The notes under the pieces: generated by a model | What the model was told of the DNA's origin: nothing | The model's database searches: none | Seen by the model: only the letters and a program-made list of their open reading frames with translations | Assembly (NCBI GenBank): GCA_041673345.1 | Contig: JBAYXX010000006.1 | Location: 5,357 to 69,356, forward strand | DNA length: 64,000 bases | Direction of reading: 5' to 3' | DNA from: Kiritimatiellia bacterium | Lineage (GTDB): Bacteria > Verrucomicrobiota > Kiritimatiellia > RFP12 > UBA1067 | Made by a program: the position numbers and the translations under genes | Shown: piece after piece, positions 3,996-57,874 of the stretch | How positions within the stretch are numbered: the stretch's first letter is position 1 | How the letters are laid out: every line of letters starts with the position of its first letter

Positions 3996-4499
3996 TTAGT
4001 TAGCTTCAATGCGCTTGACCTCTGATCTCTCGGGCAGTGCTGCCAGGAGTGTTGCCACAGTCGCGGTTTGTCCGGGAACAATGAACTTTGGGTTCAACTC
4101 TGCCAGAGGCTGTAGAACAAAACGACGCAGGTGTGCGCGAGGATGCGGAAGGGTCAGATTGGAGTCAGAGCTGATGATATTGTCGAAGGTGATAATATCA
4201 ATGTCAATGGTTCGCGGCTGATTGGGTGTTTGTCTGACTCGTAGGAGCTGCTCTTCAATTTGATGCACGGCATTTGAAAACTGCTGGGAGGTGAGTTCGG
4301 TTTCAATGATTAACACCGCATTGATAAAGGCCTTGTTTCGGTGCTCGGCGGCAACCTCTACCGGCTCGCTTTCATACAGCGATGAACAGCGTTTCAGCTT
4401 TGTTTTAGGCAGAGCGGCCAGGGCTTGCACGGCTTGGGCGAGCCAGCCTTTGCGGTCACCGAGATTGCTGCCAATTGAGAGAATTGCGGTGTGTGGCAT
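3996..4499 (-). CDS. folK: 2-amino-4-hydroxy-6-hydroxymethyldihydropteridine diphosphokinase (HPPK)
   Basis: 167 aa. HPPK motifs SIGSNLGDR, RTIDIDII and LTLPHPRAHLRRFVL. Confidence 0.9.
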   Translation of the reverse strand: MPHTAILSIGSNLGDRKGWLAQAVQALAALPKTKLKRCSSLYESEPVEVAAEHRNKAFINAVLIIETELTSQQFSNAVHQIEEQLLRVRQTPNQPRTIDIDIITFDNIISSDSNLTLPHPRAHLRRFVLQPLAELNPKFIVPGQTATVATLLAALPERSEVKRIEAN

Positions 4500-4801
4500 T
4501 GCTTTGCTCTGTAAATGACTGTCTATAACTTGATCACCTGGTTATGGTTCGTCTCTGCAACTCGGGGGCGCATCTGTGAATTGGTGCATATTACCGGATA
4601 ACCTTCGAAGTCACTGTTGTCCACCGCATAGCGGAGGACATACTTATATTGCAACCAAAGTAAATCCGCCGTTACACGGTGGATTATTGCGCCGATTCGC
4701 AGGTGCGCCCGGATGGCGGTAATACCTTGTCTCGAACCTTGTCTCTTTCGCCCATCCCAGATCATCGCTGCTTGATTAGGATTACGATTAACAGTTAACA
4801 A

Positions 4802-5611
4802 TTAGATAGCCTCAAACCCGAGCACATGCCGCATGGTATAGATGCCCGGGTGGCGGCTGGCAAGCCAGATGGCAGCGCGCAGGGCTCCTTTGGCAAAGGC
4901 TTTACGTGAGACGGCTTTGTGGGTGATTTCGACACGCTCCTCATCGGCCACAAACATTACAGTATGGTCGCCCACCACCGAACCGCCGCGCAGAGCGTGG
5001 ATCGCGATCTCACCCGAGGGGCGCTCGCCGGTGATACCCTCACGTCCGTAGCAGACCACCTCTGAGAGGTTGACCTCGCGCCCCTGCGCCACTGCCTCAG
5101 CCAGCCCCAGAGCGGTTCCGCTGGGAGCATCCTTCTTGTGTTTGTGGTGCATCTCGACGATCTCGGCATCATAGTCATCCCCCAAAACAGAGGCTGATCG
5201 GCGCACCAGCTCCAGCAATAGGTTGATTCCCAAACTCATGTTGGGCGCCCAGACCACTGCGATATGCGCGGATGCGTCCACAACCGACTGCTTCTCCTGC
5301 TCAGTGAGCCCTGTGGTTCCAAGAACATAACCCTGCTTAAACCTCCGTGCATTGGCTAGGTTGGCCGTGACACAGGTGTGGAAGGTGAAGTCAATGATTA
5401 CCTCCGCACTCTCCGGCCACTCCGTGGTATACGTCAAGGTGCCTGGCACTGCGTCGGAGCTGATATTGGTAAACGCCTTAACAGTTTGGCCAACGGCGGG
5501 GTGGTCAACACGTTCGCAGGCCGCGACAATTTCACAACCGCTGACCGCTCCCGCGCACTCCAGCAGGTTGTATCCCATCCGTCCAGCGGCACCTAGTATA
5601 GCGATTTTCAT
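4802..5611 (-). CDS. dapB: 4-hydroxy-tetrahydrodipicolinate reductase
   Basis: MKIAILGAAGRMG dinucleotide fold and EMHHKHKKDAPSGTA motif. I moved the start to ATG 5611 because the sequence from 5619 upward is a dispersed repeat that also occurs reversed at 45155-45230. Confidence 0.9.
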   Translation of the reverse strand: MKIAILGAAGRMGYNLLECAGAVSGCEIVAACERVDHPAVGQTVKAFTNISSDAVPGTLTYTTEWPESAEVIIDFTFHTCVTANLANARRFKQGYVLGTTGLTEQEKQSVVDASAHIAVVWAPNMSLGINLLLELVRRSASVLGDDYDAEIVEMHHKHKKDAPSGTALGLAEAVAQGREVNLSEVVCYGREGITGERPSGEIAIHALRGGSVVGDHTVMFVADEERVEITHKAVSRKAFAKGALRAAIWLASRHPGIYTMRHVLGFEAI

Positions 5612-5954
5612 AGTTTTTCCTTTAGTTGCTATTCTCTCAACTCCGTCACAAAACAAGAAGTTCAGATAGCCATTTTCATAAGTTGTTGAGTGAAAATATT
5701 CTTTGCAAGCAAGCAGCTTGCACTATTTCACTATCACTTTTACAGTAACTTCTCAATAACCCGCTTTGAAGCAGCCTTCCGTCTTCGCGCTTCGCAACTA
5801 CGCCGAACACGGAAAGCCTGTACTACAAACTTCGTTTCCCCAAACGCATAGCGTTTGTTACTAAAGCAGCGGGCTCATAATCACAAACTTTTCAGTGAGG
5901 GCAAAGACCTTTCACACATCACACAAACTCATTTGGTTGCGGCGACTAGCTGCT
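5612..5954. repeat. Mosaic intergenic repeat block R4
   Basis: 5619-5692 matches the reverse complement of 45155-45230. 5706-5770 matches 3826-3900. 5837-5878 (ccaaacgcatagcgtttgttactaaagcagcgggctc) matches 21228-21270 and the reverse of 45080-45120. Confidence 0.85.
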
Positions 5955-6824
5955 TTAGAGCAGTCCAGCACTTTGCAGGGCGCACGAGAGTTTTTGGCGA
6001 TCCTCTGAGGCGAGTTTGCAGAGTGGCAGGCGGTAAATTTCGTGGATCTTACCCATCATAGCCAACGCCGATTTCACAGGGATCGGGTTGGTATCAATAA
6101 AAAGGGTGGCAAACAGCGGGTAGTTAGCACGATGCAGCTCCAATGCTTTAACGAAATCGCCATCCAGCGCGAGCCGCACCATACGGGACACTGCTTGCGG
6201 TATGATGTTAGCTGCCACGCTTATCACACCGGCGGCGCCGACACTGAGCATAGGGAGCGCCAAGCTGTCATCACCCGAGACAACGGTGATGTCACAGATA
6301 TTACGGATCGCGCTGACGCGCTCCACGCTGCCGCCCGCCTCTTTTACAGCCACGATTTTGGGATGGCTTGCCAGACGCTGAATCACGCTGAGGGGAATCT
6401 CCCGGGAAGTCCGCCCCGGGACATTGTAAAGAACCACAGGCACGCCCAGATCAGCGATGGCTGTAAAGTGCTGATAAAGCCCCTCCGCGTTAGGCTTGTT
6501 ATAGTATGGGGTCACCTGCAACGTGGCATCAACACCCATGCCCAGCAGCTCTTGAGTGAGCGAGATGGCTTCACTGGTTGAGTTTGCACCAGTGCCTGCG
6601 ATGATCTGCACTTTGCCAGCGGCAGCTTCAACTGTGGTGGCGATCACTTTCAGGTGTTCATCGACCTCAAGTGTGGGTGATTCACCAGTGGTGCCAACAG
6701 GGACGAGGCCTTCGACTCCATTTTCAACCTGCCACTGGACGAGTTGCCGCAGTGCGCCGTAATCAACACTCTGGTCTTGGTTAAACGGGGTTACGATCGC
6801 TGTGTATGTTCCTGATAAAGTCAT
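5955..6824 (-). CDS. dapA: 4-hydroxy-tetrahydrodipicolinate synthase
   Basis: DapA pattern VPVGTTGES, YNVPGRT and VAVKEAGG (Schiff-base Lys region). Internal ATG 6824 (MTLSGTYTAIVTPF) gives the typical length. Confidence 0.9.
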   Translation of the reverse strand: MTLSGTYTAIVTPFNQDQSVDYGALRQLVQWQVENGVEGLVPVGTTGESPTLEVDEHLKVIATTVEAAAGKVQIIAGTGANSTSEAISLTQELLGMGVDATLQVTPYYNKPNAEGLYQHFTAIADLGVPVVLYNVPGRTSREIPLSVIQRLASHPKIVAVKEAGGSVERVSAIRNICDITVVSGDDSLALPMLSVGAAGVISVAANIIPQAVSRMVRLALDGDFVKALELHRANYPLFATLFIDTNPIPVKSALAMMGKIHEIYRLPLCKLASEDRQKLSCALQSAGLL

Positions 6825-6974
6825 AAGAATCCTTGTGTTTTGCCTTGTATTATGGGCTAAAACGTGTGTTAAGGTCAACAATAAAGGGTTCTATGCCGCA
6901 GTTACTATTATTTCGCTTTGCATCAGGCCGCCCAAGATAGTATGATAAACGTTATTAATTAAGAAAGATTTCCA

Positions 6975-7301
6975 ATGAAGATATGTCCTTATTGCGCTGA
7001 AGAAATTCAGGATGCTGCAATTAAATGCAAGCACTGTGGTGAATTTCTGGATGAACGCGCCCAGCCAGCCTTGCCCGACAACACGATACCGTGGTACTAC
7101 CGCACAACTTTTATTGTGATCGCTCTCTGCTGTGTCGGCCCGCTGGCCCTGCCGCTGCTATGGTTATGCCCGCAGGCCTCACAGGTTGCTAAAGCTGTTT
7201 GGACAGCCATCATTCTTATCATAACCTATGTCTCCATCATCGCTATGGGTAAACTTGTAGGAACCATCGAACAGTTTTACCAGCAGATGAACGCATTTTA
7301 A
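6975..7301 (+). CDS. Small membrane protein with an N-terminal zinc ribbon (hypothetical)
   Basis: 108 aa. CPYC..CKHC zinc ribbon followed by two hydrophobic helices. Confidence 0.6.
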   Translation: MKICPYCAEEIQDAAIKCKHCGEFLDERAQPALPDNTIPWYYRTTFIVIALCCVGPLALPLLWLCPQASQVAKAVWTAIILIITYVSIIAMGKLVGTIEQFYQQMNAF

Positions 7302-7329
7302 TTTTACAATTTACAGAAAGGACACGCCG

Positions 7330-8442
7330 TTGCACAACATAGAAATAGTCGCGACACCAAATAGACTTCAAGAGGTTACCAACCTGATTCTTCAAACCTC
7401 AGCCGTGGCTGTTGACACTGAATTCTTCTGGGAAAGAACATTCTACCCAATTTTAGGGCTGGTGCAGCTGGCCACTGCTGATGGTGCCTGCTGGTTGGTT
7501 GATACTGTTAAGATTCCGGATATCAGCGCGCTAGCGCAGCTGCTGGAGTGTGAGAGAGTCACCAAAGTTCTGCACGATGCGCCGCAAGATCTCGGCATTT
7601 TGGCACAGGCCACCAATGCGTCGCCGCGCCAAATTTTTGACACCCGAGTCGCGGCTGGCTTCGCGGGCTTTGAGTCAACCTGCTCCCTGCAATCCCTATT
7701 GCGTGAGACCCTCAAGGTCGAAATATCAAAAGATGAGACGCGCTCCAACTGGCTCCATCGTCCGCTCAACGAAAACCAGGTGCGCTATGCTGCGGACGAT
7801 GTTTTACACCTGCTGCCGCTCAGAGAGCACCTGATCCGGTCCTGTTCCAGCGACACTGTGCGTGAGTGGCTGGAAGAGGAGTGCATACAGTTGAACAACC
7901 CGAATGTCTATCAGGAACGTGACCCACGTATGATGTATCTGCGAGTCAAAGGCAACTCGCGCCTGAACGCACGCCAGCTCGCCGTCCTGCGGGAGATCAC
8001 AGCGTGGCGCGAAGAGGTGGCCCACCAGCGTGACTGGCCGCGCGGCCATGTGTTACGTGATTCGCTACTAATTGATATAGCGTACCTGACCCCCTCCGAT
8101 GTTGCGACTTTAATGGATTTGCCGGGTTTTCCGCAGAGAATGCCAGCCGAAGTGGTGGCCGCCCTGCTGGATGCCGTGGAAACCGGCACTGAGCTGCCTG
8201 ATAAGCTGTGCCCGCAGCCAGACGAAATCACATTTGCCACCCGCCGTTCGTTCCAATCCCGCGCCAAACGATTACTCGACCAAATCCGCCAAAGGTGCGC
8301 CCAACATGGGATTGACCCCGCACTCGTAGCCTCCCGCTCTGATGTGGAGTCTTTACTCGTGTGCGATCATGCCGACAGGCGGCCGCACCGCCTGACACAA
8401 GGGTGGCGTAAGATAATGCTGGAGGGTCTGGATTATAACTAA
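7330..8442 (+). CDS. rnd: Ribonuclease D
   Basis: DEDD exonuclease motifs AVDTEF, HDAPQDL and YAADDVLHL, plus an HRDC-like C-terminal half. TTG start as given in the track. Confidence 0.85.
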   Translation: MHNIEIVATPNRLQEVTNLILQTSAVAVDTEFFWERTFYPILGLVQLATADGACWLVDTVKIPDISALAQLLECERVTKVLHDAPQDLGILAQATNASPRQIFDTRVAAGFAGFESTCSLQSLLRETLKVEISKDETRSNWLHRPLNENQVRYAADDVLHLLPLREHLIRSCSSDTVREWLEEECIQLNNPNVYQERDPRMMYLRVKGNSRLNARQLAVLREITAWREEVAHQRDWPRGHVLRDSLLIDIAYLTPSDVATLMDLPGFPQRMPAEVVAALLDAVETGTELPDKLCPQPDEITFATRRSFQSRAKRLLDQIRQRCAQHGIDPALVASRSDVESLLVCDHADRRPHRLTQGWRKIMLEGLDYN

Positions 8443-9377: not shown

Positions 9378-9982
9378 AGGTCAGCTTTCCTTTCAATGGA
9401 GGGTGGGTAATTCATAATAAAAAACTACAATTGATCGTTATTATTGCATAAAGATGGATAGGTTGGAAAGGTTTAACGGGAAATTCTAAAGTTTGAGAGT
9501 GAAGAGTTGGCACCTCAGGCGCGGGAGCGAAAAGCGCGTGCCAATCGGTTGCATTACGAGCCGCAGCTGTAGGGCGCGGGCCTTGACCGCGCCAGCGAAC
9601 GAAAGTTTAGCGCAACACGAGCCGAAACGCTTGGCTATAGTCTATAAACGCGCCAACCGCGGTCACGGCCCGCGGCTACAGTGCTGCGCAAAAGCGTAGG
9701 TCCGGTTTCCAACCGGACCTACTGGAGTTTGGCTTCGCCATCGGTTGACGATAGCGGCGACGATGCTGGTCGACGAGCCCCCGCATGATCCCAATCGTCC
9801 ACCAACATCGCTTGCCACGCCGAACGACTGGAAGGCGGGCCGCACAGCATCGTCGGCCGATGCCGCTCAACGAGCGGCATATGTCGCTCGCAGAGCGACT
9901 ACTATATTAGAGTTAGACGATTCCGCAGATAGACAACTTTTTGGAAAGAACAATTAATTGTTTTTTCTAGTCGCCTAAGGGC
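9378..9982. repeat. Mosaic intergenic repeat block R5
   Basis: Module C at 9697-9722 and module A reversed at 9740-9900. gcagctgtagggcgcgggcc (9563-9595) and ccgcggtcacggcccgcggctacagtgctgcgca (9657-9692) recur at 57496-57530 and 57590-57625. gacaactttttggaaagaacaattaat at 9933-9958. Confidence 0.85.
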
Positions 9983-17304: not shown

Positions 17305-18045
17305 AATCTACCATAGTCTGTCGAGGCTTGGGCGCATTTGCGCCGGCCGCTTGACCTGCAAGCTTCATCAAAGTTGAAACTGTAGAGTTGGCGGCACCTG
17401 TCCGGCGTAGTTCCGCCATGCCGCGGCGTAGCGGCGTAGCCCCGCTTGCAGGCGAAGCCGGGTTGCGCGCGAAGCTAGACTGCGGGACGAAGGCGGATGA
17501 GCCAAACAAAGATTATGAAAACCCATGGTGCGCCTTTGACGAACAGCCAGCCGGTGTTCGCTAATTGCTTCAGAGAAGCAACCCTACACCCTTGTAGGTG
17601 CTTTTCACATGCCTGTTGCAAAATGCCGCTCACAGAGCGGCTACTACACCGAACGATAATCCTTGCATTCCGCAGTGTACCGCATGTGTAGTAGTCGCTC
17701 TATGAGCGACATCGGCCGACGATGCTGTGCGACGATGCTGGTGGACGATTGGGATCATGCGAGATCATGCGGGAACTCGTCCGCCAACATCGTCGCCGCT
17801 ATCGTCAATCAAAGGCGCAGCTGACCTTTGTAGGTCCGGTTTCCAACCGGACGTGTCCGATTGGAAATCGGACCTACGTTTTTGTGCAAGACAAACATGT
17901 TGGTACTTAAAAACATGTTGTCGGGGACCAATCTTAATCTTAGTCTTAATCCCAATCCTTATCTATCCATCCATCCTAGATCAACGTTTTTTGATTAGGA
18001 TTATGATTAAGATTGTGATTAAGAACCCTAAGTGCGGATCTAGAT
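17305..18045. repeat. Mosaic intergenic repeat block R6 (near full-length composite: modules K, B, A, C and a GATTNN hairpin)
   Basis: 17305-17880 is colinear with the reverse complement of 41164-41670, with indels. Hexamer hairpin arms at 17929-17963 and 17993-18023. Confidence 0.9.
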
Positions 18046-32574: not shown

Positions 32575-32654
32575 AATGGTCACGCAAACCAATGGTCACG
32601 CAAACCAATGGTCACGCAAACCAATGGTCACGCAAACCAATGGACGCGTAAACC
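32575..32654 (+). repeat. 16-nt tandem array, 5 units of aatggtcacgcaaacc (last unit degenerate)
   Basis: Direct reading. Preceded by the 19-nt palindrome gtgaccatttaatggtcac (32565-32583). Confidence 0.95.
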
Positions 32655-32690
32655 AACCCAAAATCGCAGTTTTTTGCACAAATCTAAAAA

Positions 32691-34896: not shown

Positions 34897-35322
34897 TTTG
34901 AAGGTCAAACGCACCCGACCCCGAGTTGCATAGTGAAAGGTACACCGTGGGGTGTAGGGTTGCTTCTGCCTTGTCCGCCGTAGCCTTGGCGAAGGAGGAA
35001 GAAGCAATTGCGGATACTGGGCAGGTATTCGCCAAAGACGCCCCATGGGATTTCATGATCTTTGATTGGCTCTTCCGTCTTCGTCCCGCAAGCGGAACTA
35101 CGCCGGACAAGCACCGCCAACCCTACACTTTCAACCATAATGAAGTTTGCTTTGTCATTCGGTGTAGTCGCCGCTTTACGAGCGGCGTCGGTTGACGATG
35201 ATGTGCGACGATGCTGGTTGATGATTAAAGCCCACTTTCAGTTATACGTGAGCAGTAATGTTTTACAAACAAAAATCGAAGTTATGGGCAAGGTTCGAGG
35301 CAAGGTTTAAGAAAGGTAGATT
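34897..35322. repeat. Mosaic intergenic repeat block R8, inserted between nrdD and nrdG
   Basis: Module B with an internal insertion (34933-35135), module A fragment (35160-35225), and ggcaaggttcgaggcaaggtt (35287-35307). Confidence 0.85.
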
Positions 35323-36089: not shown

Positions 36090-37388
36090 ATGAAAATTAC
36101 GATTGTTGGGTCGGGTTACGTTGGTTTAGTTGCTGGTGCCTGCTTTGCTGAGTTGGGGAATGATGTGATCTGCCTGGATGTTGATGTCGAGAAGGTTGAA
36201 GCTTTGAAGACGGGCGTTGTCCCGATCTATGAGCCGGGGCTGGATGAACTGATCGTCCGCAGCCATAGAGAGGGTCGGCTCCAGTTTACAGTTGATAAGC
36301 GCAAGGCGATTCAATTTGCCGAGATTATCTTTATTGCGGTTGGAACTCCGATGGGCGAGAACTATGAGGCTGACCTGCGTGATGTCAGAGCGGTTGCTGC
36401 GGATATCGGCACGCACATGCAGGAGTATAAGGTTGTTGTTAACAAGAGTACCGTTCCAGTGGGAACAGCGGCGATGGTCAAGGCGATTATTAAGCAGAGC
36501 CAGCCAACGGACATTGAGGTGGATGTTGTCTCTAACCCCGAATTTTTACGGGAGGGGGCGGCAATCAAAGACTTTATGTTGCCAGACCGAGTTGTGGTTG
36601 GGAGCGACTCTGAGCGGGCTGAGGATATTATGCGGAGGCTCTATCAGCCGCTTGTCCGCATTGATCATCCGATGGTCGTCACCGATATCAAGAGCGCGGA
36701 GTTGATCAAATATGCGGCCAATGCGATGCTGGCCACCCGCATCAGTTTTATGAATGAACTCTCGCACCTGGCCGAGGCCGTGGGTGCCGATATCAAGAAA
36801 GTCGCGCTCGGTATGGGGCTGGATAAGCGCATTGGCTCGCGCTTTCTGCAGGCCGGCGTGGGCTATGGAGGCAGCTGTTTTCCGAAAGATGTGCAGGCTT
36901 TGATTCACACCATGAAAGAAAGCGGGTGCCACTCCCGAATTCTGAATGCCGTTGAAGAGGTGAATAATGACCAAAAACTCTCGTTGATACCCAAGGTTGA
37001 GCGTTTGGTTGGCGATTTGGCTGGAAAAAAAATAGCGGTCTGGGGGTTGGCGTTTAAACCCAAAACCGATGACATCCGTAACTCACCGGCGCTGCAGATG
37101 ATTGCCGAGATGCAGCGGCGTGGTGCGGTGATCGCCGCTTTTGACCCGGTTGCCGAGAGCAACTGCCGCAGGGAGGGGGTTGCGGTTGAGTATGTCCAGA
37201 AACCTTTGGATGCGCTTGTGGATGCGGACTGTCTTGTTCTGATAACAGAGTGGGATGTGTTCAGAGGATTGGACCGGGCGGAGATGAAACGCTTGATGAA
37301 GAGCCCCAATATCGCTGATGGCCGTAATGTCTATGATCAGGGTGAGATGCGCTCGCTAGGCTTTAATTACCTCAGCGTCGGGCGTTAA
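36090..37388 (+). CDS. ugd: UDP-glucose 6-dehydrogenase
   Basis: MKITIVGSGYVGLVAGACFAELGNDVICLDVD, GGSCFPKD catalytic Cys region, 432 aa. Confidence 0.92.
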   Translation: MKITIVGSGYVGLVAGACFAELGNDVICLDVDVEKVEALKTGVVPIYEPGLDELIVRSHREGRLQFTVDKRKAIQFAEIIFIAVGTPMGENYEADLRDVRAVAADIGTHMQEYKVVVNKSTVPVGTAAMVKAIIKQSQPTDIEVDVVSNPEFLREGAAIKDFMLPDRVVVGSDSERAEDIMRRLYQPLVRIDHPMVVTDIKSAELIKYAANAMLATRISFMNELSHLAEAVGADIKKVALGMGLDKRIGSRFLQAGVGYGGSCFPKDVQALIHTMKESGCHSRILNAVEEVNNDQKLSLIPKVERLVGDLAGKKIAVWGLAFKPKTDDIRNSPALQMIAEMQRRGAVIAAFDPVAESNCRREGVAVEYVQKPLDALVDADCLVLITEWDVFRGLDRAEMKRLMKSPNIADGRNVYDQGEMRSLGFNYLSVGR

Positions 37389-37410
37389 TCTTCGGGTGTT
37401 AATCTTCGGG

Positions 37411-37439
37411 TTGACAAATTTCAGCAGAAGTAGCATAAT
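37411..37439 (+). promoter_or_regulatory. Sigma-70-type promoter (TTGACA - 17 nt - CATAAT)
   Basis: TTGACA at 37411-37416, a 17-nt spacer, and CATAAT at 37434-37439. Confidence 0.7.
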
Positions 37440-37469
37440 TTTGAACTTCGACGGTGAAACAGTCCGTCA

Positions 37470-37612
37470 GATCGGAATAATAAACGGAAGTCCGTGAGAT
37501 TCGGACGCGGTCGCGCCACTGTAAAAAGCTACGACCTCCCAGATACCATGCATCAGCAGAAGGTGGGAGGAAGGTTTGAAGCTCTAAGCCAGGAGACGTG
37601 TTATTCGGATAC
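37470..37612 (+). promoter_or_regulatory. Cobalamin (B12) riboswitch aptamer
   Basis: ggaagtccgtgagattcggacgcggtcgc then GCCACTG (37515-37521), gggaggaagg, and the B12-box-like aagccaggagacgtg (37586-37600). P1-like pairing between ggaataa (37474-37480) and ttattc (37601-37606). Confidence 0.8.
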
Positions 37613-37669
37613 TGCAAGATTCCTCCGCGGGATATGAGGATCAGGAGTATTGAGACATTGTTTCATATT

Positions 37670-37710
37670 GCTTCGGATTCCATATGAGAACTCCGAAGTT
37701 TTTTGTTTTT
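37670..37710 (+). terminator. Intrinsic terminator (riboswitch expression platform)
   Basis: gcttcggattc / gaactccgaag stem followed by ttttttgttttt. Confidence 0.75.
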
Positions 37711-37757
37711 AAGGTTCCGCCCTAACACCAACATAACCAAGGTAAAGGCATGGAGCT

Positions 37758-39017
37758 ATGAAAGCAAATACTATCGCACTAACACTGACCCTTCTGAGCG
37801 CATCCGCTCTCTATCTCGACGCGGCACCAACGCCCGGCAAACCCACTTACATCATCCAGGAGCTGGATAACTCTGCGGGAACATTCACAACCTACGGCGG
37901 TTTGACCAAGAATGGCGATGTTCTTTACTACGGCAACTATGACACAGTGAGGCAGTATGACCTGGCAGGGGCGACCAACTCGGTTTACGCAACCACAGTG
38001 GGCAATGCCGACACTAAAGGGCTGGCTAAGATTGGTTCAACCCTGTATATGGCGTTGGACACATCCTATAATGCTCCCTATCCCTCAAGTCTCGGCACAG
38101 TTGACCCAGCCACTGGTTTCACTGCAACTCTGGTGAGCGGTAAAGAGCAGGGTGAGACAACCTACTCGATCTATGACGCAACGCTCAACAACGGCGAGTA
38201 TTATTTTGTCGCGGCCCCTGGAACCATTAACACTAACAGTCAGTCGGGTGCAACTGGCACCCGCATCTATCGCTATAATAACGCTGATCCGAGTGCTCCG
38301 GTTGAAATCGCCAACATCGGCGGCTCCTCCGGCGGCATTGCCTTCGACACTGCGGGCAACCTTTACTATGCGTCGCAGAACTGGGGTCAAGGCATCCTGA
38401 GATTTAATGCCGTAAATGTCGCGCGCGGTGGGCTGACCGCAGCCGACGGCGCAACTGTGGCGGATGTTACCGCAGGTTATCTTGGATTTTTGCCTGACGG
38501 CCATTTGGTCGCCACAACCGGCTGGGGTGTCAGCTTGGATGTTTTCGATATCAACACTGGTGCCAAGCGCAGAACAATTGCCACTGTTCCATCCGACTGG
38601 TCTGAATCAATTGGCAAATTTGTGGTCGATGGCACCACGCTCTATGTCGCCCATACCGACTGGAACGCGTATACTGGCAATCTCTATGCGATTAACCTTA
38701 TTGAGCCCGCAGGCTATGCGAGTTGGGTCACGGACAATTTTCCCGTCACCTACCCCGGTGATGACGTTGACAGCGATGGCGATGGCTCCGCCAACTACGC
38801 TGAGTTCGTGGCCGGTACATCGCCAACCGACAAATTGGATGTGTTCACCATAAATATCGAGATGACCGATGACCTGCCAACCCTGAGCTGGACTCCCGAC
38901 AAAGTTGCTGGCCGCAGCTACACGCTGCAAGGGCGCGAATCTCTTGCAGCCGGAGGCTGGGGCGCTACGAATGCCAACTCGCGCTTTTTCCGAGTTAAGG
39001 TCCAGTTGAGTCAGTAA
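37758..39017 (+). CDS. Secreted beta-propeller-like protein (NHL/SGL-type repeats) with a Ca-binding D-x-D-G-D-G motif and a C-terminal FxRxxV module
   Basis: Signal peptide MKANTIALTLTLLSASALYLDA. Repeats such as GIAFDTAGNLYYASQNWGQGILRF. C-terminus DVDSDGDGSANYAEFVAGTSP...SRFFRVKVQL. First gene after the B12 riboswitch. Confidence 0.7.
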   Translation: MKANTIALTLTLLSASALYLDAAPTPGKPTYIIQELDNSAGTFTTYGGLTKNGDVLYYGNYDTVRQYDLAGATNSVYATTVGNADTKGLAKIGSTLYMALDTSYNAPYPSSLGTVDPATGFTATLVSGKEQGETTYSIYDATLNNGEYYFVAAPGTINTNSQSGATGTRIYRYNNADPSAPVEIANIGGSSGGIAFDTAGNLYYASQNWGQGILRFNAVNVARGGLTAADGATVADVTAGYLGFLPDGHLVATTGWGVSLDVFDINTGAKRRTIATVPSDWSESIGKFVVDGTTLYVAHTDWNAYTGNLYAINLIEPAGYASWVTDNFPVTYPGDDVDSDGDGSANYAEFVAGTSPTDKLDVFTINIEMTDDLPTLSWTPDKVAGRSYTLQGRESLAAGGWGATNANSRFFRVKVQLSQ

Positions 39018-39042
39018 CAGAGTCAGGGGCGGTAAGCAATTA

Positions 39043-39083
39043 ACCAGGTCACTAAGTCACCAGGTCACCGAGTCACCAGGTCA
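39043..39083 (+). repeat. 8-nt tandem tract (GTCACNNN, about 5 units)
   Basis: accaggtcactaagtcaccaggtcaccgagtcaccaggtca. Ends 24 nt before the receptor ATG. Confidence 0.9.
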
Positions 39084-39107
39084 AAAAAACAGCTTACCGC
39101 CAAGCCC

Positions 39108-41163
39108 ATGAGAAAAACTACGAAAATGCGAATAAAAACAAAGATACTGGCGACCACTGCCTTCGCTTTACTCGCGCTAACAACTGCTCGGTATTGCGCC
39201 GCGCAGAGCAATATCGTGGTGGTGGTCACCGCCTCGCGCCTTGACTCGCTGGCCCAGGATGTGATGCAGGTGGCTGGCGATGTCTCCGTGATCAACCGCG
39301 AGGGCATCGAACGCTCGCGCGCCCACAGTGTCCCTGAACTGCTGCGTTCGCATGGCAATGTTGTTATGCGCTCATCGACCGGCAAAGGCAACACCGGCGA
39401 GCTTGCCATGCGGGGGTTTGGTGAGAACAGCGGCCTCAGAGTGCTGGTGGTTGTTGACGGGCAGACCATGAATCGCTCGGATATGGGGGTCCAGGATTGG
39501 CAGCAGATCCCCCTTGATGAGATTGAAAATATTGAAATCCTGCGAGGCGGTCAGAGCGTGCTCTATGGCAACCACGCCCTCTCCGGTGTGATCAAGATTA
39601 CCACAAAAAAAAGGGGGCGAGGATCGTACCAAGCTCAAGGCCTCAGCTGGCAGCTATGGCTTTCAAGAGTATGGGGCTACCCATCAGGGTTCAATCGACG
39701 CTCTCAGCTACGATGCCGGCCTCAGCTACCAGCGCGATGAAGGCTATCGTAAGAACTCACTCTCCTGGAGCAAGAACGCCAACGCCAGCCTGAGTTATGA
39801 TATCACCGGCGAAGATACCCTGACCTTTCGTTTCTCCGGTGGCGAAAATTACTACCAGCTGCCCGGACCGCTGACCTACGAGCAATACAAGAAAAGTCCC
39901 AAGAAATCAAGCAACCGAGGCGACCAGGATGCGCACACTGATAGCGGCTTGATTACCTCGCTCTACGAAGCGGAGCGCGACTGGGGCAAGATGCAGCTCA
40001 ACGCTGGTCTTAACATGCGCAACATCGACTGGGAGATGAGCGGCATGCACGGCTGGAACCAGCAGCGGGGATACTCCCTCTCGCCCAAAATTATGTATGG
40101 CGATGAGGACGACTATTCAATTAGCGGCGGGATTGACCTGCTCTACGACACGCTGGATTTCACAGGCCAGAACAATGTGAAGATTAACTATGCTGAACTC
40201 AATCGTCTGACCACCGGTCCATTTCTGCTGGCCAAGAAAAAGTTCTTTGATGCCCTCACATTCAGCGCTGGGGCGCGCTATGAGCGGGCGCGCACAGATG
40301 GCAAAAACCTGCAATACAACAAGGCGGATATGATCGAAGTGCTTGAACCGCCCTATCCCTGGTTAGATCCCATCCCCAATCCCGACTACCCAGCTCAGCC
40401 AATTAAAGAGGCCTCCTTTGATGACTCGTTTTATAAAGAGGGGTGGTCGTACGAGGCTGCCATACTGTGGGAGGTAACCGAGAACTTCAGCCTCTGGTGT
40501 CGCTACAACCGGGTCTACCGCTACCCAGCTCTTGACGAAAGCGCCTCCTACCAGGGCTATCCCCTCGAACACCCTCTCAATGCTGGCCTTGAGCCTGAGA
40601 CCGGCGATAATTTCGAGGTTGGCGGCAAGCTGCGCTGTGGCTCTTGGAGCGGTTCGGCCACGCTCTTCTATCTGATGATGGATGATGAGATCTCCTATGA
40701 TGATCAAAAAAAATTGAACACCAACATTGGCGAGACCGAGCGGCTTGGCTCAGATCTGCAACTCGCGTTTGAACGTGATATCTATGGCGCATCCTGTATG
40801 ACCGAGCTGGTTGCCGCGAAATTCCGCGATGGGGCTAACAAAGGCGAGCATGTGCCGCTGGTCCCTGATGCGCATGGGGTTGTCACGCTCTGGGTGGAGC
40901 CGCTTGCGGATTTTCGCTTAACTGGCAACTATACCTGGGTTGTAACCCAGTATCAGGGTGGTGACTTTAGTAACAAAATGCGCAAAATTGATGGGTATGG
41001 ACTCTTCGGAGTGCGCGCTGACCTGACTTTGATGGATCATCTCGGGCTCTTTGTAAAGGTCGATAACCTGCTTGACCAAGCTTACGCCAGCTCCGCCTAC
41101 ACTGGTGCCTGGTATCCCGGCATGGGGCGCGCACTCTATGGCGGCCTGACCTTGGAGTTTTAA
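39108..41163 (+). pseudogene. TonB-dependent outer-membrane receptor (BtuB-like by context), reading frame broken by one extra base in an A8G5 run
   Basis: Track ORFs 39108-39740 (signal, TonB box [10 protein letters not shown], plug domain) and 39949-41163 (barrel, terminal GGLTLEF) form one protein if one nt is skipped at 39605-39617. The +1 frame then reads [48 protein letters not shown] straight into the second ORF. Confidence 0.85.
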
Positions 41164-41670
41164 TGGCGCGGAGTGAAGAAGTGCGCGAGTGCGTAAGTGC
41201 GATAGTGCGCGAATGAAAAGGTCGCGCCGTTGGCGTGGGGCAAAGTAGGTCCGATTTCCAATCGGACATCTCCGGTTGGAAACCGGAGCTATAGAAGTCG
41301 CCTTCGCCTTCGGTTTACGATAGCGGCGACGATGCTGGTTGACGAGCCCCCGCACGATCCCAATCGTCCAGCAACATCGTCGCACAGCATCGTCGGCGTG
41401 TTATGATTTAGTTCGTGAAAGGCGCGCCCTGAGGTGTAGGGTTGCTTCTACGAAGCAATTTGAGGGTGCCGGGCGGCTGTTCGTCAAAGGCGCGCCAAGG
41501 GATTTCATAATCTTTGCTTGGCTCATAGAGCCAACCCTACAGTTTCAACTTGGATGAAGCTTGCAGGTAGTGCGACAGGCGCAAATGCGCCAAAGGCTAC
41601 AGGCAATAACTCGACAGACAACTTTTTGGAAAGAACAATTAATAGATGTAAAAAAAGAATAGGAGCAACA
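41164..41670. repeat. Mosaic intergenic repeat block R9 (reverse-oriented copy of R6)
   Basis: 8-nt tract NAGTGCGN x4 (41171-41215), module C (41236-41285), module A reversed (41290-41400), module B (41415-41550), and gacaactttttggaaagaacaattaat (41618-41645). Confidence 0.9.
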
Positions 41671-43404
41671 ATGAAATTTTTTATATTGCTGACCTTTATG
41701 TGGGCGATATCGCTTTCAGCTGCTCAGCTGCCAGCACCGGGCACAGCAGGCTTGCCAATTCCATTTGCCAAAGCCGCAGGGCAGGCTGGCAGCACTGCGA
41801 TCCACATGAACTCACCGCGCTTTGTCGGCTGGGCTGATGGTTATATTGATCTCTCGTATGGCAGCTCTGTGGCCCCTGTGTGGAAAACCCCGGCCAAGGC
41901 GTTGGGCAAAGCTAAGGGCACAACCACCGATATCGTCTGCCTTGGGAGCGGAGGGCGCATTACTCTGACCTTTTCAACCCCGATTGCCAATGGAGCGGGG
42001 TTTGATTTCGCTGTTTTCGAAAACGCCTTTGACGACAACTTTCTGGAGCTAGCCTGGGTAGAGGTTTCCTCTGATGGGATTCATTTCTGCCGTTTCCCAA
42101 ACTATTACGTTGGCAAACTTCCAGTTGGCGGCGGCAGTGGTCATGATCCGAGAGATATCTACGGCCTCGCGTCAAAATACAAACAGGGGTATGGCACTCC
42201 GTTTGATCTGCAGGAGCTGCGGGACGCTTACGACACGATTCTCAGTAAAAAAGCCAATTTTCTCAGCAAAGCGTATCAAAAATCCATCACCGATAATTTC
42301 CCTTATCTTGACCTAAATAATATCGGCTATGTTAGAATAATCGATATTATCGGTGATGGTAGCGCTATTGATGCCACTGGGCTCAGACCAATTTATGATC
42401 CATACCCCACCACTGGCAGCGCCGGGTTTGATCTGGACGCAATAGGGGTCATCAATCAGCGTCAGACTCCTAATCTCCTATCGCAGCAGATCACCTTCGC
42501 ACCGCTCCCGCACCAGCGACTTGACACTGGCTCTATCAACCTGAGCGCCACCAGTAGCAGCGGCTTGCCAGTTGCATTTACGGTTACGGAGGGGCCGGCC
42601 TTGCTTACGGGTGCCGCCCTCGCTTTCACTGGCAGCGGTAGTGTGGTTGTGACCGCATCCCAGCCCGGCGACGCGAGCTACGCCCCGGCAGCCAATGTTG
42701 TCCACTCGTTTGTGATTGCGGAGCACACGCAGCATATCTACCTCGCACCTGTCCCTAATTTACTGGCAAACCCGACCTTCCAGTTGTATGCTGCCAGTAG
42801 CCGTGGTCTACCTGTCAGTGTCGAGGTTTTTGATGGTGCCGCTGATGACAGGACTAACAATTATAACCGACTGACAGTCAGCAGCACTGGTTTCGGCAGC
42901 TCCGGTGTCAAGATAGTCACACTGCGGGCCTTTCAAAATGGTGACGCAATAACAGCGCCCGCTGAAGATGTATTTATGCAGGTCAAGGTTATCAATTCAC
43001 GCTCAGCTGATGCGCCTCAGAGCTTTGCTGCCTGGTGCGATGTTCATCAGATTGCGGTCAATCGTACGGCGGATAACGATGGTGATGGCTTCAACAACTT
43101 TGATGAGTTCATGGCTGGCACCAGCCCAGTGCGCCAGGAGGAAAAACCGGATATTGTTTTCACTGTCGAGCCAAGTGCGCCGGAGCAGCGGCGGGCATTG
43201 GTCAAGCTGCGCATTTGCCGCAGGGCAACCGCCACATTGAAATTTCAGCACTGCGAGAGCCTGAATGAGGGGTGGCATGAGGTTATACCGAACATCAAAG
43301 CGTTGACCTATGCGGAGGAGTCAGGCACAGAGTACGTCGAACTTGAGCTGGAGCTAAACGCCGATGCCTCCGCTGGTTTTTATCGGGCATTATATGTGGA
43401 GTAG
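41671..43404 (+). CDS. Secreted hypothetical protein with two Ig-like repeats, a D-N-D-G-D-G Ca-binding motif and a C-terminal FYRALYV module
   Basis: Start set at ATG 41671 (MKFFILLTFMWAISLSAAQ signal, aggag SD), because the 51 upstream track codons lie in repeat R9. Internal repeats ..GLPVAFTVTEGPA.. and ..GLPVSVEVFDGAA... C-terminus NDGDGFNNFDEFMAGTSP. Confidence 0.7.
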   Translation: MKFFILLTFMWAISLSAAQLPAPGTAGLPIPFAKAAGQAGSTAIHMNSPRFVGWADGYIDLSYGSSVAPVWKTPAKALGKAKGTTTDIVCLGSGGRITLTFSTPIANGAGFDFAVFENAFDDNFLELAWVEVSSDGIHFCRFPNYYVGKLPVGGGSGHDPRDIYGLASKYKQGYGTPFDLQELRDAYDTILSKKANFLSKAYQKSITDNFPYLDLNNIGYVRIIDIIGDGSAIDATGLRPIYDPYPTTGSAGFDLDAIGVINQRQTPNLLSQQITFAPLPHQRLDTGSINLSATSSSGLPVAFTVTEGPALLTGAALAFTGSGSVVVTASQPGDASYAPAANVVHSFVIAEHTQHIYLAPVPNLLANPTFQLYAASSRGLPVSVEVFDGAADDRTNNYNRLTVSSTGFGSSGVKIVTLRAFQNGDAITAPAEDVFMQVKVINSRSADAPQSFAAWCDVHQIAVNRTADNDGDGFNNFDEFMAGTSPVRQEEKPDIVFTVEPSAPEQRRALVKLRICRRATATLKFQHCESLNEGWHEVIPNIKALTYAEESGTEYVELELELNADASAGFYRALYVE

Positions 43405-43630
43405 GATTGTCTGTTGTAGCTTGACTAGTATTTTATGATTTAGTTTGTGAAGAGTGCGCCCTGGGAGCTGGATTGCAACGTAAATGCGACAAACGTCATT
43501 ATGCTTGACAACCTTTTTAAGATCAATGTACAGGGTTTATAGAAATAATATTGCTCTGCGTACTCTACCGGCTCTGCGAGGGCAAATTCAGCTGTTCAAT
43601 TTTTCTGATTAACTCTATAATGTGCGCTAA

Positions 43631-45076
43631 ATGAGTGAAGAAAAAAATATAAAGTCAAGAGTAGTGGCAATTGTCGGGCGCCCGAACGTTGGCAAATCGG
43701 CGATTTTTAACCGGATTGCAGGTAAGCGGATTGCTATTGTACATGATGAGAGCGGTGTGACCCGCGACCGTCTGATGCAGGAGGTCAGCTGGAGTGATCA
43801 GCGATTTTCGCTGATCGACACCGGTGGCGTGGCGCTGCGCGACGGCGAGAGCCAGCGCGACAAGATTGAATCGGGTATCCGCACGCAGGTCGACATTGCA
43901 CTGGGTGATGCTGCAGCTGTGATCCTTGTAGTGGATGTGCAGCAGGGGGTGCATTCGCTGGATGAGGAGGTGGCCGACATTGTCCGCAAGCGCGGGGTTC
44001 CCTGCGTGGTGGCGGTCAATAAATGCGATCTGCCTGAGCATGATGATGGCGCTGAGGAGTTCGCCCGTTTAGGATTCGCCTACTTTCCGGTGGCAGCGCA
44101 GCACAACCGCGGCATGGGCGATCTGATGAGCGAAATTCTACCGTTACTGCCACAGGTTGAGAATGAGACCGAGACGATCCCTTTGAAGGTCGCAGTGGTC
44201 GGCCGCCCCAATGCCGGCAAATCCTCCTATATCAACCGTTTGCTGCGCAATGAGCGCGTGATTGTCTCAGATGTCGCCGGCACTACTCGGGATTCAATTG
44301 AGGTGCCTTTCACGATCGGCAAGGGGGGCCAGGCGCGCCATTACACCTTTGTTGACACAGCTGGGATGCGCAACCGACACAAAGTGGATAGCTCAGTTGA
44401 GCGTTTCAGCCTTTTCCGGGCTGAGAAGAGTGTTGAGGAGGCGGATGTAGTGGTGCTGGTGATGGACCCTGATTTCGGTCCGACCAGTCGTGACAAGCAT
44501 ATTGCATCGCTGATTCAGAAGCATGAGAAAGGCTGCCTGATCATCATGAATAAATGGGATCTGGCCGACGCAAAAGGGATCACGCAGACCCAGGCTGAGC
44601 CAGCGATCCGCCAGATGATGAGCTTCATGGATCACTGTCCGATTGTGTTCACATCCACGGTCAGTGGTCTGAATGTGCGCAAGAGCATTGAGGTGATTGA
44701 CATTGTATCCGCCAACATCCGGGTGGAGCTGCCGACAGGTATGCTCAACCGCACTATCAAAGAGGCGATGGCACGTGTGAGCGCTCCCCGCCGCGGCGGT
44801 AAGGGGCTCAAGGTTTACTATGCGGTGCAGGTGGGAAAAGCACCGATTAGAATTCGTCTCTTTGTGAACAACAAGAAGTTGATGCCCAAGCAGTATCAGG
44901 ATTTTTTGATTCGCTCACTACGCGAACGCTTTGGTCTGGAAGGGGCACCGGTGATCCTGCTGCTCAAAGAGCGCGCGCGACCTGATCTACATGAGCGCTT
45001 GCGCGACAAAGCCGCTCAAGCTCAAATCGACATGAAAGATGAGATCCCGCCAGAGTATCTGGACGACGGAGATTGA
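43631..45076 (+). CDS. der: Ribosome-biogenesis GTPase Der (EngA)
   Basis: Two G domains (GRPNVGKS twice, DTGG/DTAG, NKCD/NKWD) and a KH-like domain, with an extended charged C-terminal tail. Confidence 0.92.
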   Translation: MSEEKNIKSRVVAIVGRPNVGKSAIFNRIAGKRIAIVHDESGVTRDRLMQEVSWSDQRFSLIDTGGVALRDGESQRDKIESGIRTQVDIALGDAAAVILVVDVQQGVHSLDEEVADIVRKRGVPCVVAVNKCDLPEHDDGAEEFARLGFAYFPVAAQHNRGMGDLMSEILPLLPQVENETETIPLKVAVVGRPNAGKSSYINRLLRNERVIVSDVAGTTRDSIEVPFTIGKGGQARHYTFVDTAGMRNRHKVDSSVERFSLFRAEKSVEEADVVVLVMDPDFGPTSRDKHIASLIQKHEKGCLIIMNKWDLADAKGITQTQAEPAIRQMMSFMDHCPIVFTSTVSGLNVRKSIEVIDIVSANIRVELPTGMLNRTIKEAMARVSAPRRGGKGLKVYYAVQVGKAPIRIRLFVNNKKLMPKQYQDFLIRSLRERFGLEGAPVILLLKERARPDLHERLRDKAAQAQIDMKDEIPPEYLDDGD

Positions 45077-56815: not shown

Positions 56816-57874
56816 ATCTCGTCAACAGACAGTTGAAGATAACGGCGGCGATGCTGGTGGATGAGCTCCCGCATGATCCCAATCGTTCACCAACCTCGTC
56901 GCACAGTATCGGCGGCCGTTGTTTGCCTAGGATTGTGGTTCAGCCCGTGAAAGGTGGGCCCTGGGGTGTAGGGTTGCTTCTATGAAGCAATTAGTTGACA
57001 TCAGGTGTTTGTTTGCCAAAGGCACACCATAGGATTTCATGATCTTTGTTTGGCTCATAGAGCCAACCCTACAGTTTCAACCAGGATGAAGCTTACCAAT
57101 CGCGAGCAAGCCTTGCCGTTCGTGTAGTAGCCGCTCTACTTGTCGGGCATAGTTCCGCCATGCCACGGCGTAGCCCCGCTTGCGGACGAAGCCGGGTTGC
57201 GGGACGACGCCTGTAGAGCGGCATTGGTTGACGATGATGTGCGACTAGTGACACGTCACTAGAAAAAGTCGAAGTTATAGGCAAGTCCGCCGCGCGGCTA
57301 CGCCGCGAAAAAACGATGAGGTAACTCGACAAAATGGGCAGGTTATGGGCAACGTGGGAGGGGCATCCTGCCCCTCGGCAGCCTCAGAGGGGCTGGAAGC
57401 CCCTCCCACGTTAGATAGTGAAATCAGTGTCTGTCCCTAAGTCGTCACTGCAGTGCGTGCCGTAGGGACGCGCCAGCCGAGTGATTAGCAGGTCGAAGCT
57501 GTAGGGCGCGGGCCGTGAACGCGCCGGCGGGTAAAAGTGTGGTGCTTCGTGAGTCGGAACGCTTGACGATTGGTCATAAAAGCACCACCCCGCGGTCACG
57601 GCCCGCGGCTACAGTGCTGCGCAGGACGTAGGTCCGATTTCCAATCGGACATGTCCGGTTGGAAACCGGACCTACAGACGTTCATCGCCGCTATCGTCAA
57701 CCGGAGGCCTGGCCTCGCTGGACAAGGATTGCGATTAAGATTGTGATTAGGATGTGCATCCCTCCTAATCGTAATCCTAATCGCAATCCTAATCAAACAA
57801 CGGTGGTTTTCAGTTATGTGCGACTAGTGACACGTCACTAGAAAAAGTCGAAGCTACAGGCAAGCCCGCCGCAT
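56816..57874. repeat. Mosaic intergenic repeat block R11 (largest; modules A, B, K, D, I, J, C, a GATTNN hairpin and a 55-nt direct repeat pair)
   Basis: Module coordinates are given in the findings. 55-nt direct repeats at 57237-57291 and 57816-57870. Hexamer hairpin at 57727-57794. Confidence 0.9.

Follow-up and report, generated by a model that had tools for sequence, protein, structure and literature searches.

Introduction

Competition for vitamin B12 shapes microbial communities, and nearly all detailed work on the extracellular machinery used to capture this vitamin concerns gut Bacteroides, where riboswitch-controlled BtuB receptors operate together with surface accessory binders (PMC6143338, PMC10404256, PMC8941943, PMC13616437). 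The B12 binders of Bacteroides are DUF4465/BtuJ, BtuH, BtuG, and BtuK1 (PMC13398666, PMC8941943, PMC10404256, PMC13616437). DUF4465 constitutes the BtuJ family; representatives of several phyla, the Coraliomargarita protein D5EK51 among them, have been shown to bind B12 (PMC13398666). The BtuH domain occurs alone (BtuH1), behind immunoglobulin (Ig)/PKD domains (BtuH2), or behind a propeller (BtuG1) (PMC8941943, PMC13616437), and the H-domain of BtuG1 is homologous to BtuH2 and binds B12 (PMC10404256, PMC13616437). We here describe a locus that combines a cobalamin riboswitch, a BtuB-like TonB-dependent receptor, and two secreted proteins, encoded by the open reading frames (ORFs) ORF1 and ORF4, in a 64-kb stretch of DNA (hereafter "the window") from a Kiritimatiellia bacterium (contig JBAYXX010000006.1). 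Our search of the literature on Kiritimatiellae or Verrucomicrobia in connection with B12 riboswitches, DUF4465, or BtuH found nothing relevant.

The locus resembles the Btu loci of Bacteroides thetaiotaomicron, which likewise comprise a cobalamin riboswitch, a BtuB-type receptor, and secreted accessory proteins that include a propeller and a BtuH-type domain combined with Ig-like domains. It differs from these loci in its phylogenetic placement, in the Kiritimatiellota within the Planctomycetes-Verrucomicrobia-Chlamydiae (PVC) group, and in the absence of lipoprotein signals, with PEP-CTERM or a module of a TSP3 motif and a β-sandwich serving as anchors. We consider it very probable that the locus represents a B12-regulated corrinoid-uptake system. 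More specifically, it is probably a B12-repressed operon for corrinoid acquisition at the outer membrane, i.e., an operon of a known kind with new accessory families, for which we infer corrinoid binding by ORF1 and ORF4.

Results and Discussion

Cobalamin riboswitch and gene content of the locus

The leader upstream of ORF1 matches the Rfam cobalamin riboswitch model (RF00174, clan CL00101) over its full length (model positions 1-189 of 189), with a score of 61.9 bits as compared to a gathering score of 31.5 and an E value of 6.8e-13. That this is the sole Rfam match in the whole window, and that linkage between this riboswitch and the genes discussed here is found again in dozens of unrelated genomes, argues against a chance match. 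The motif GCCACTG (GCCACUG in the RNA; 37515-37521) and the B12 box aagccaggagacgtg (37586-37600) could be read directly from the sequence. A predicted σ70-like promoter, which matches the consensus at 11 of 12 positions and is the top site within 37300-43700, adjoins the first base of the aptamer match, while a terminator-like hairpin (GCUUCGGA...UCCGAAG), followed by a U-run, has a predicted folding energy of -12.2 kcal/mol (z -3.2 versus shuffled sequences). The 3' arm of this hairpin, UCCGAAG, is able to pair alternatively with UUCGGA at 37604-37609, and the expression platform would appear to function as an OFF switch of the terminator type.

Downstream of the riboswitch, ORF1 is followed by the receptor gene and then by ORF4. 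The receptor contains a Plug domain (PF07715, E = 8.9e-24) and a β-barrel domain (PF00593, E = 1.3e-32) and is thus of the Plug plus 22-strand-barrel type; no further B12 genes were found in Pfam and NCBIfam scans of the proteins encoded in the window. The nearest protein relatives of the locus are found in Kiritimatiellae metagenome-assembled genomes (MAGs), and DNA of the locus is present in landfill and wastewater metagenomes. An original prediction, made from the sequence alone, had proposed the cobalamin riboswitch with an Rfam check (now run), its two motifs, the near-consensus promoter, and the terminator, all of which were recovered at the positions claimed, and had also stated correctly that the regulated genes are not btuFCD; the lengths, signal peptides, propeller, and Ig-like domains that it assigned to ORF1 and ORF4, as well as a repeat block ahead of ORF4, were found as described (Table 1).

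ORF1 represents a small propeller family that is almost always linked to B12 riboswitches

ORF1 carries a Sec signal peptide without a lipobox cysteine. In the AlphaFold model, residues of about 30-315, most of which have a predicted local distance difference test (pLDDT) value above 90, form 24 strands and hence six blades, while the C-terminal 100 residues (about 320-419), which contain a TSP3-like DxDGDG motif and a small β-sandwich, are poorly predicted. ORF1 has no match in Pfam (E up to 0.01), in NCBIfam, or among PDB sequences. The closest PDB folds identified with Foldseek are six-bladed SGL/SMP30 lactonases, luciferin-regenerating enzyme (LRE), DFPase, and strictosidine synthase, with E values of 1e-10 to 1e-8, template modeling (TM) scores of 0.6-0.7 (target TM up to 0.70), and identities of 11-16%. 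While ORF1 thus shares its overall six-bladed fold with the SGL/SMP30/gluconolactonase, LRE, and DFPase class (PF08450), it differs from this class at the sequence level as well as in being secreted, riboswitch-regulated, and located in a transport context; no Pfam match to PF08450 was found, and the resemblance is one of fold only. Residues that are invariant in the ORF1 family are concentrated in a single blade motif that is typical of NHL/SGL structural repeats.

On sequence grounds, we rejected a reading of ORF1 as a divergent BtuG, as comparison with the G-domain of BtuG1 yielded an hhalign value of 3% and ORF1 did not match PF16819, which BtuG1 itself, used as a positive control, does match. 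BtuG (DUF5074/PF16819) is a seven-bladed lipoprotein, whereas ORF1 is predicted to have six blades, lacks a lipobox, and shows no detectable homology to BtuG, in agreement with the earlier proposal of a non-homologous propeller. Like BtuG, ORF1 is encoded next to a btuB-type gene under a B12 riboswitch, with the ORF1 gene preceding that of the receptor; the two propellers thus appear, from their sequences and gene context, to be alike in role and not in ancestry. ORF1 also had no match to PF14717 (DUF4465); DUF4465/BtuJ is a jellyroll, as opposed to the propeller of ORF1, and shows no sequence relationship to either ORF1 or ORF4.

The ORF1 family is small; a word-indexed search yielded 21 proteins, and 46 members at E values up to 1e-30 were obtained when 1.84 billion representatives were searched exhaustively with HMMER, with matches to the ORF1 profile below this level representing generic NHL/SGL repeats. 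Most family members end in a PEP-CTERM anchor, in place of which the subgroup that includes the window protein has the TSP3-like DxDGDG motif and the β-sandwich.

Riboswitch linkage of ORF1 homologues in other genomes had been named beforehand as a point on which the original prediction could fail, and the family withstands this check. Among the 17 propeller loci found, including the one in the window, ten homologue loci were fetched (L081-L090), and in all ten Rfam detected a cobalamin-clan riboswitch (RF00174, RF01482, or RF01689) on the same strand, 47-444 nucleotides (nt) upstream of the propeller gene; the propellers concerned include members that are only 30-35% identical. The two loci that encode propeller fusions (see below) are also riboswitch-linked, as determined with nhmmer, and overall a same-strand cobalamin-clan riboswitch is present in 15 of the 17 loci. 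An adjacent or fused domain of the BtuH or ORF4 type was found in 14 of 17. The ORF1 family is a near-obligate and previously unannotated member of the B12 regulon; to judge from the libraries and the literature that could be searched, this is a new finding.

The position of the propeller gene among these loci suggests what it may replace. In sister loci of the PVC group, the canonical layout consists of the riboswitch, DUF4465, the receptor, and the ORF4-type N-terminal domain (hereafter "N-domain"), in this order, with DUF4465/BtuJ (PF14717) as the secreted first gene behind the riboswitch and beside the receptor; the propeller takes this slot. DUF4465 was found in none of the 17 propeller loci, as compared to 56 of 80 N-domain family loci (hypergeometric P of 0.008 to 0.0003). 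The order riboswitch, propeller, receptor occurs in four loci (the window, L081, L082, and L084), and L009 retains the order of propeller and receptor with no detectable riboswitch; in L082, which is part of the complete genome CP036201, the propeller is followed by the receptor and an N-domain, as in the window. In L084, exbB-exbD-tonB-btuF-btuD-btuC are encoded divergently beside the propeller locus (3123-7642). Other loci contain a clear BtuH-like protein instead of an N-domain beside the propeller (L083, L089, and L090; a related BtuH-like protein is found in L087), only the propeller behind the riboswitch (L085), or the propeller with only a BtuF-like protein (L088). Finally, P0163 (619 amino acids [aa]) and P0167 (603 aa) combine a propeller and, behind it, an N-domain in one protein, which is the same order as that of propeller and H-domain in Bacteroides BtuG1. 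With the propeller occupying the DUF4465/BtuJ slot, never co-occurring with DUF4465, and also being fused to an ORF4-type domain, the idea that another phylum arrived at an independent solution for B12 capture is strengthened, and, given its riboswitch linkage and its pairing with BtuH-type domains, ORF1 is a strong candidate for a new corrinoid-capture component.

Several additional observations were made on propeller loci and on the propeller family. Genes for a His_Phos_1 (CobC-like) protein and a TP_methylase are located near the propeller locus of CP036201 (L082 7000-7575 and 13277-13957), and L083 encodes a fused BtuF-BtuC protein plus BtuD beside the propeller locus (52-2660). In seven loci, the riboswitch is followed by the propeller, a BtuH-type protein (separate or fused), and a prepilin-type protein of about 280-340 aa with an N_methyl, GspG-like N terminus (Table 1), and there is no adjacent TonB receptor, which places a pseudopilin-like protein under a B12 riboswitch. 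Family variants include two tandem propellers (P0142), extensions with FG-GAP repeats (e.g., P0018, P0154, and P0160), and, in a protein of 1204 aa (P0145), an additional PQQ-like propeller. ORF1 (38715-39014) and ORF4 (43030-43401) also have in common a C-terminal module, i.e., (F/Y)A-x-W and DxDGDG..N..EF.AGTSP followed by a β-sandwich, which, standing in place of PEP-CTERM, may serve for anchoring or sorting in a lineage-specific manner.

The N-domain of ORF4 belongs to a multi-phylum family and is likely a remote relative of BtuH

The AlphaFold model of ORF4 (pLDDT 87.7) shows, after a Sec signal peptide, an N-terminal mixed β domain (nt 41758-42477; about residues 30-267), which is followed by a pair of Ig-like domains, a motif of the TSP3 type, and, at the C terminus, a β-sandwich. 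The conserved part of the protein is the N-terminal domain of about 240 residues, for which we found >3000 homologues, with matches in >514 species (GTDB representatives) from the Kiritimatiellae, Verrucomicrobiota, Planctomycetota, Desulfobacterota, Myxococcota, Spirochaetota, and the Beta- and Gammaproteobacteria; mean column identity across phyla is unusually high at 47%. ORF4 has no family match in Pfam, NCBIfam, or PDB sequences. In particular, PF14717 was not detected in ORF4, while control neighbors in L035 and L021 matched it with E values of 4e-55 and 6e-48, respectively, and the possibility that the N-domain is a divergent DUF4465 was rejected based on an hhalign value of 0.2%.

Genomic context was surveyed for 80 N-domain loci, with riboswitches identified by an iterated nhmmer profile. 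A cobalamin riboswitch was found in 57 of these loci, with all 61 matches on the strand of the gene and none on the opposite strand, and Rfam agreed with nhmmer in every locus checked by both. In Betaproteobacteria, the riboswitch is followed by an N-domain protein and a DUF4465 protein, both with PEP-CTERM, and then by the receptor. The architectures in which the N-domain occurs, i.e., alone with PEP-CTERM, with Ig-like domains (as in ORF4), and behind a six-bladed propeller, parallel those of BtuH.

A number of profile comparisons suggest that this parallel extends to sequence. When a diverse N-domain profile was compared to 177,635 PDB sequences, the top match, albeit weak (E = 0.089), was to residues 435-475 of 8BLW_B, with a second collinear block at residues 621-635; this chain is BtuG1 of B. 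thetaiotaomicron, and the matched region is its C-terminal H-domain. BtuG1 orthologues for a profile comparison were retrieved from gut metagenomes with a 55-residue composite query, while a homologue search with a 40-residue BtuG1 fragment gave no matches. Comparison of the N-domain with the BtuG1 H-domain by hhalign yielded 87.4% with a score of 45.7, as compared to a mean of 14 and a maximum of 24 for 400 column shuffles and to 15.7 for a reversed control; when extension was relaxed, two pairs of blocks aligned in order, FLELAWVEVSSDG with AEPGIVLVSKD and LDLNNIGYVRI with VTLDKIDFVKI. In L083, L089, and L090, the propeller is followed by a protein of roughly 300 aa that carries PEP-CTERM and is unambiguously BtuH-like (hhalign 97.5%, E = 7e-12, 180 columns), and a BtuH profile broadened with these and the L087 protein matched the N-domain at 94.5% (E = 7.9e-8, 94 columns). 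When about 7000 ORFs from the loci were searched with the BtuH-like hidden Markov model (hmmsearch), the 40 best matches listed contained, beyond the model's own members and one L014 ORF, only N-domain ORFs, with window ORF4 detected at E = 3.8e-5.

The N-domain and the BtuH domain (BtuH1, BtuH2 7BIZ, and BtuG1 8BLW) are of similar size (about 240-255 aa), are found in the same riboswitch/BtuB context, and contain the same core blocks in the same order, i.e., SLG-GG-ITL-F-x-I-N-x-G-DF-x-V-x-N, E-x-x-VEVS, and LD-x-I-x-YVRI. The two resemble each other at the profile level only (hhalign 87-94%), with confidence limited to roughly the 100 N-terminal residues. The N-domain family has invariant N, E, and D residues, which, judging from motif spacing only, would be equivalent to Asn399, Glu406, and Glu584 of BtuH2 (PMC13616437). 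Based on these profiles, the N-domain of ORF4 is likely a remote homologue of BtuH's B12-binding domain. It differs from its Bacteroides counterparts in being N-terminal instead of C-terminal in ORF4, in being highly divergent, and in its distribution; descriptions of BtuH are limited to gut Bacteroidota and three Firmicutes, as opposed to the PVC group, Proteobacteria, Desulfobacterota, Myxococcota, and Spirochaetota for the N-domain. The N-domain has gone unannotated because neither Pfam nor NCBIfam contains a model for the H-domain. We thus describe a large, unannotated, multi-phylum domain family in B12 loci that is probably distantly related to BtuH, a relationship for which we found no precedent in the libraries or in the literature that could be searched. 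The earlier statement that neither secreted protein represents a known family hence holds for ORF1, which has no Pfam or NCBIfam model, and does not hold for ORF4, the N-domain of which belongs to a large family with a putative link to BtuH.

Three further observations concern individual N-domain loci. Six loci from marine Opitutales, Puniceicoccaceae, and Coraliomargarita (L004, L006, L007, L008, L009, and L027) retain the order of DUF4465 or propeller, receptor, and N-domain, and neither Rfam nor nhmmer detected a cobalamin riboswitch in them, although the upstream sequence extends over kilobases; these loci may have an unrecognized riboswitch variant or a different regulator. In L014, from a Desulfobacula MAG, a c-di-GMP-I-GGC riboswitch (794-877), not a cobalamin riboswitch, is located directly before a DUF4465 gene, and a BtuH-like ORF is found at 1721-2566. 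NCBIfam model NF033170 (Leptospira LIC_13355 family lipoprotein) matches N-domain members below threshold (window 41671-43401, E = 2e-4; L035 7926-8726, E = 1.4e-3; L078 1200-1886, E = 1.8e-7), and the LIC_13355 lipoprotein family may be a B12-related relative.

Proposed mechanism and alternative explanations

We propose that, when intracellular coenzyme B12 is plentiful, the bound aptamer would allow the terminator to form and transcription would end before ORF1, while scarcity of B12 would lead to read-through into the operon. Their Sec signal peptides would direct export of ORF1 and ORF4, which would be displayed on the outside of the outer membrane, with the TSP3-like calcium motif and the β-sandwich taking the place of the PEP-CTERM anchor found in most homologues. 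Held up by an Ig-like stalk, the BtuH-like domain in ORF4 would capture corrinoids; by analogy to BtuH, we consider corrinoid binding by this domain to be reasonably likely. The propeller would act together with the BtuH-like domain, either by binding the corrinoid itself, which we consider about as likely as not, or by relaying it to the receptor, which would import the corrinoid using TonB energy. In this role the propeller would fill the slot that DUF4465/BtuJ holds in sister loci and would act as BtuG does with BtuH in Bacteroides. A broader and more tentative proposal, which we hold at somewhat less than even odds, is that the six-bladed propeller is an unrecognized corrinoid-binding or relay protein that originated independently of the seven-bladed BtuG/BtuK and that forms, together with a divergent BtuH-type domain, a two-part extracellular capture module across the PVC group and beyond; some lineages would use this module with no adjacent receptor and with the prepilin-type protein as a third conserved partner.

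A number of observations weigh against the interpretation of the locus as a working corrinoid-acquisition operon. The receptor gene, which the original prediction had correctly recognized as encoding a TonB-dependent receptor and had treated as one ORF, is interrupted by an overlooked +1 frameshift, i.e., one extra base in an A8 run (39605-39612) that is an A7 run in a 90-95% identical relative and in the closest MAG, and it falls into two parts, 39108-39740 in frame 0 and 39949-41163 in frame 1. As an independent 414-nt contig from a landfill metagenome run is identical to the window in its A8 version, the frameshift is probably present in the reads, at low depth (contig depth about 3x), and it may mark a pseudogene, result from slipped-strand phase variation, or be due to a shared error in the reads. 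Due to this frameshift, the system in this genome may be switched off, decaying, or phase-variable. In addition, a 507-nt intergenic insertion separates the receptor from ORF4, as compared to a gap of about 1-95 nt between receptor and ORF4 homologue in related loci; this insertion, which contains a weak promoter-like site (41611-41639), may uncouple ORF4 from the riboswitch, and riboswitch control of ORF4 is hence not assured. The read-through receptor scored 174.7 bits with its best NCBIfam model (TonB-B12, TIGR01779), as compared to an equivalog cut-off of 599.7, and thus falls under the NCBIfam BtuB equivalog cut-off (TIGR01779 or NF007926). A search for RNA sequencing runs that carry the locus found none, two of the 17 propeller loci lack a detectable riboswitch, and 23 of the 80 N-domain loci lack one even upon recheck with Rfam, although about half of these are cut off upstream. 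With regard to the accessory proteins, the relationship to BtuH is drawn from profiles that cover mainly the N-terminal 100 residues, neither 7BIZ nor 8BLW was among the 50 best PDB matches in a Foldseek search with full-length ORF4 (in which cadherin and Ig chains dominate, so that it is uninformative on the N-domain), and the nearest folds of the modeled ORF1 propeller (lactonases, DFPase, and strictosidine synthase) are enzymes.

These observations bear on several alternative explanations. One is that the locus in this genome is a decaying or switched-off remnant, with a receptor pseudogene, an ORF4 uncoupled by the repeat, and no working uptake system. While the reproduced frameshift and the 507-nt insertion are what such a remnant would be expected to show, ORF1 and ORF4 are both intact and are 79% and 86% identical, respectively, to their counterparts in the nearest MAG, the receptor aside from the single extra base reads through cleanly for 684 aa, and phase variation or a shared error in the reads could, at the depth noted, account for the A8 tract; we thus consider a remnant unlikely, though less so than the alternatives that follow. 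Import of a substrate other than a corrinoid (cobalt, haem, or another tetrapyrrole), with the riboswitch merely coordinating import with B12 status, would fit the observation that the barrel half of the receptor scores equally on haem/siderophore subfamily models and on BtuB. However, the best full-length model for the receptor is TonB-B12, the partner families are DUF4465, for which B12 binding is experimental (PMC13398666), and BtuH-like domains, and btuFCD adjoins the locus in L084 and L083, all of which makes such an import function very improbable.

Two other alternatives concern the propeller. ORF1 may be a non-binding accessory that serves the receptor or the BtuH-like protein, for example as a lid, a scaffold, or a docking partner, in which case only the BtuH-like domain would bind B12. 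BtuK2, a propeller of a Bacteroides B12 locus, does not bind cobamide (PMC13616437), the ORF1-type propeller seldom occurs unless paired with, or fused to, a BtuH-type domain, and no binding-site residues could be identified in it. By contrast, L085 has the propeller alone behind the riboswitch and L088 has it together with only a BtuF-like protein, and the mutual exclusion of the propeller and the binder DUF4465 fits substitution of one binder by another better than addition of a scaffold; a purely accessory role is therefore rather unlikely. The structural matches of ORF1 could also be taken to indicate a secreted SGL/SMP30/DFPase-type enzyme that acts on corrinoids or their carriers, for example by releasing or remodeling them, but the lack of a Pfam SGL match, the low identity to these enzymes, the concentration of invariant residues in one structural-repeat blade motif, and a context that consists entirely of transport and binding proteins all argue against an enzyme, which we regard as improbable.

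If the proposed corrinoid-acquisition operon is correct, ORF1 and ORF4 would provide two families of testable candidate corrinoid-binding proteins, which would allow B12 scavenging to be better annotated in environmental genomes. Our data point to a BtuH-type domain that is far more widespread than reported, with occurrence in hundreds of species of the PVC group, Proteobacteria, Desulfobacterota, Myxococcota, and Spirochaetota, and to a small, unannotated family of six-bladed propellers as a dedicated B12-regulon member that stands in for DUF4465. The architecture of propeller plus H-domain in unrelated phyla is offered as a case of convergence.

Features of the locus, neighboring genes, and repeats

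Table 1. Location of features in the window and of prepilin-type genes in other propeller loci
Feature	Location	Strand	Basis or description
Predicted σ70-like promoter	37411..37439	+	TTGACA-17 nt-CATAAT
Cobalamin riboswitch aptamer (RF00174)	37440..37615	+	Rfam covariance model
Expression platform, terminator-like hairpin then U-run	37670..37710	+	Folding energy versus shuffles
ORF1, 419 aa, signal peptide, six-bladed propeller, and C-terminal module	37758..39017	+	ORF and AlphaFold model
Tandem octamer block, 5 copies of ACCAGGTC	39043..39083	.	Between ORF1 and receptor
BtuB-like TonB-dependent receptor, frameshifted	39108..41163	+	Pfam Plug and barrel
Dispersed repeat modules with hairpins, 507 nt	41164..41670	.	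Insertion between receptor and ORF4
ORF4, 577 aa, signal peptide, putative BtuH-like domain, and Ig-like domains	41671..43404	+	ORF and AlphaFold model
Prepilin-type genes	L083 10047-10934; L086 10699-11586; L087 10140-11003; L089 10033-10875		
Prepilin-type genes	L090 8067-8996; L091 2343-3359; L092 2267-3118		

The neighbors of the locus are housekeeping genes, with nrdD/nrdG and a UDP-glucose dehydrogenase gene upstream and der, a GT4 glycosyltransferase gene, and an AraC regulator gene downstream; tRNA synthetases and ClpB are also encoded in the window. The insertion between receptor and ORF4 is a modular dispersed repeat with hairpin-forming arms, of which the window contains at least seven other copies (1694-2001, 3310-3788, 9701-9958, 17324-17880, 34933-35226, 56832-57094, and 57628-57708). 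The assembly of the nearest MAG breaks at the gap between receptor and ORF4, probably because of a repeat copy there.

The octamer block between ORF1 and the receptor shows very high depth and many different flanks in metagenomes and is thus a repeat and not part of the mechanism. Short tandem arrays with units of 7-16 nt are also found right after many stop codons in the window (39043-39083, 41180-41212, 37378-37411, 32575-32656, 2057-2148, and others), and one 14-mer array directly adjoins the riboswitch promoter at its -35 box; like the octamer block, such arrays have very high depth and many different flanks in metagenomes.

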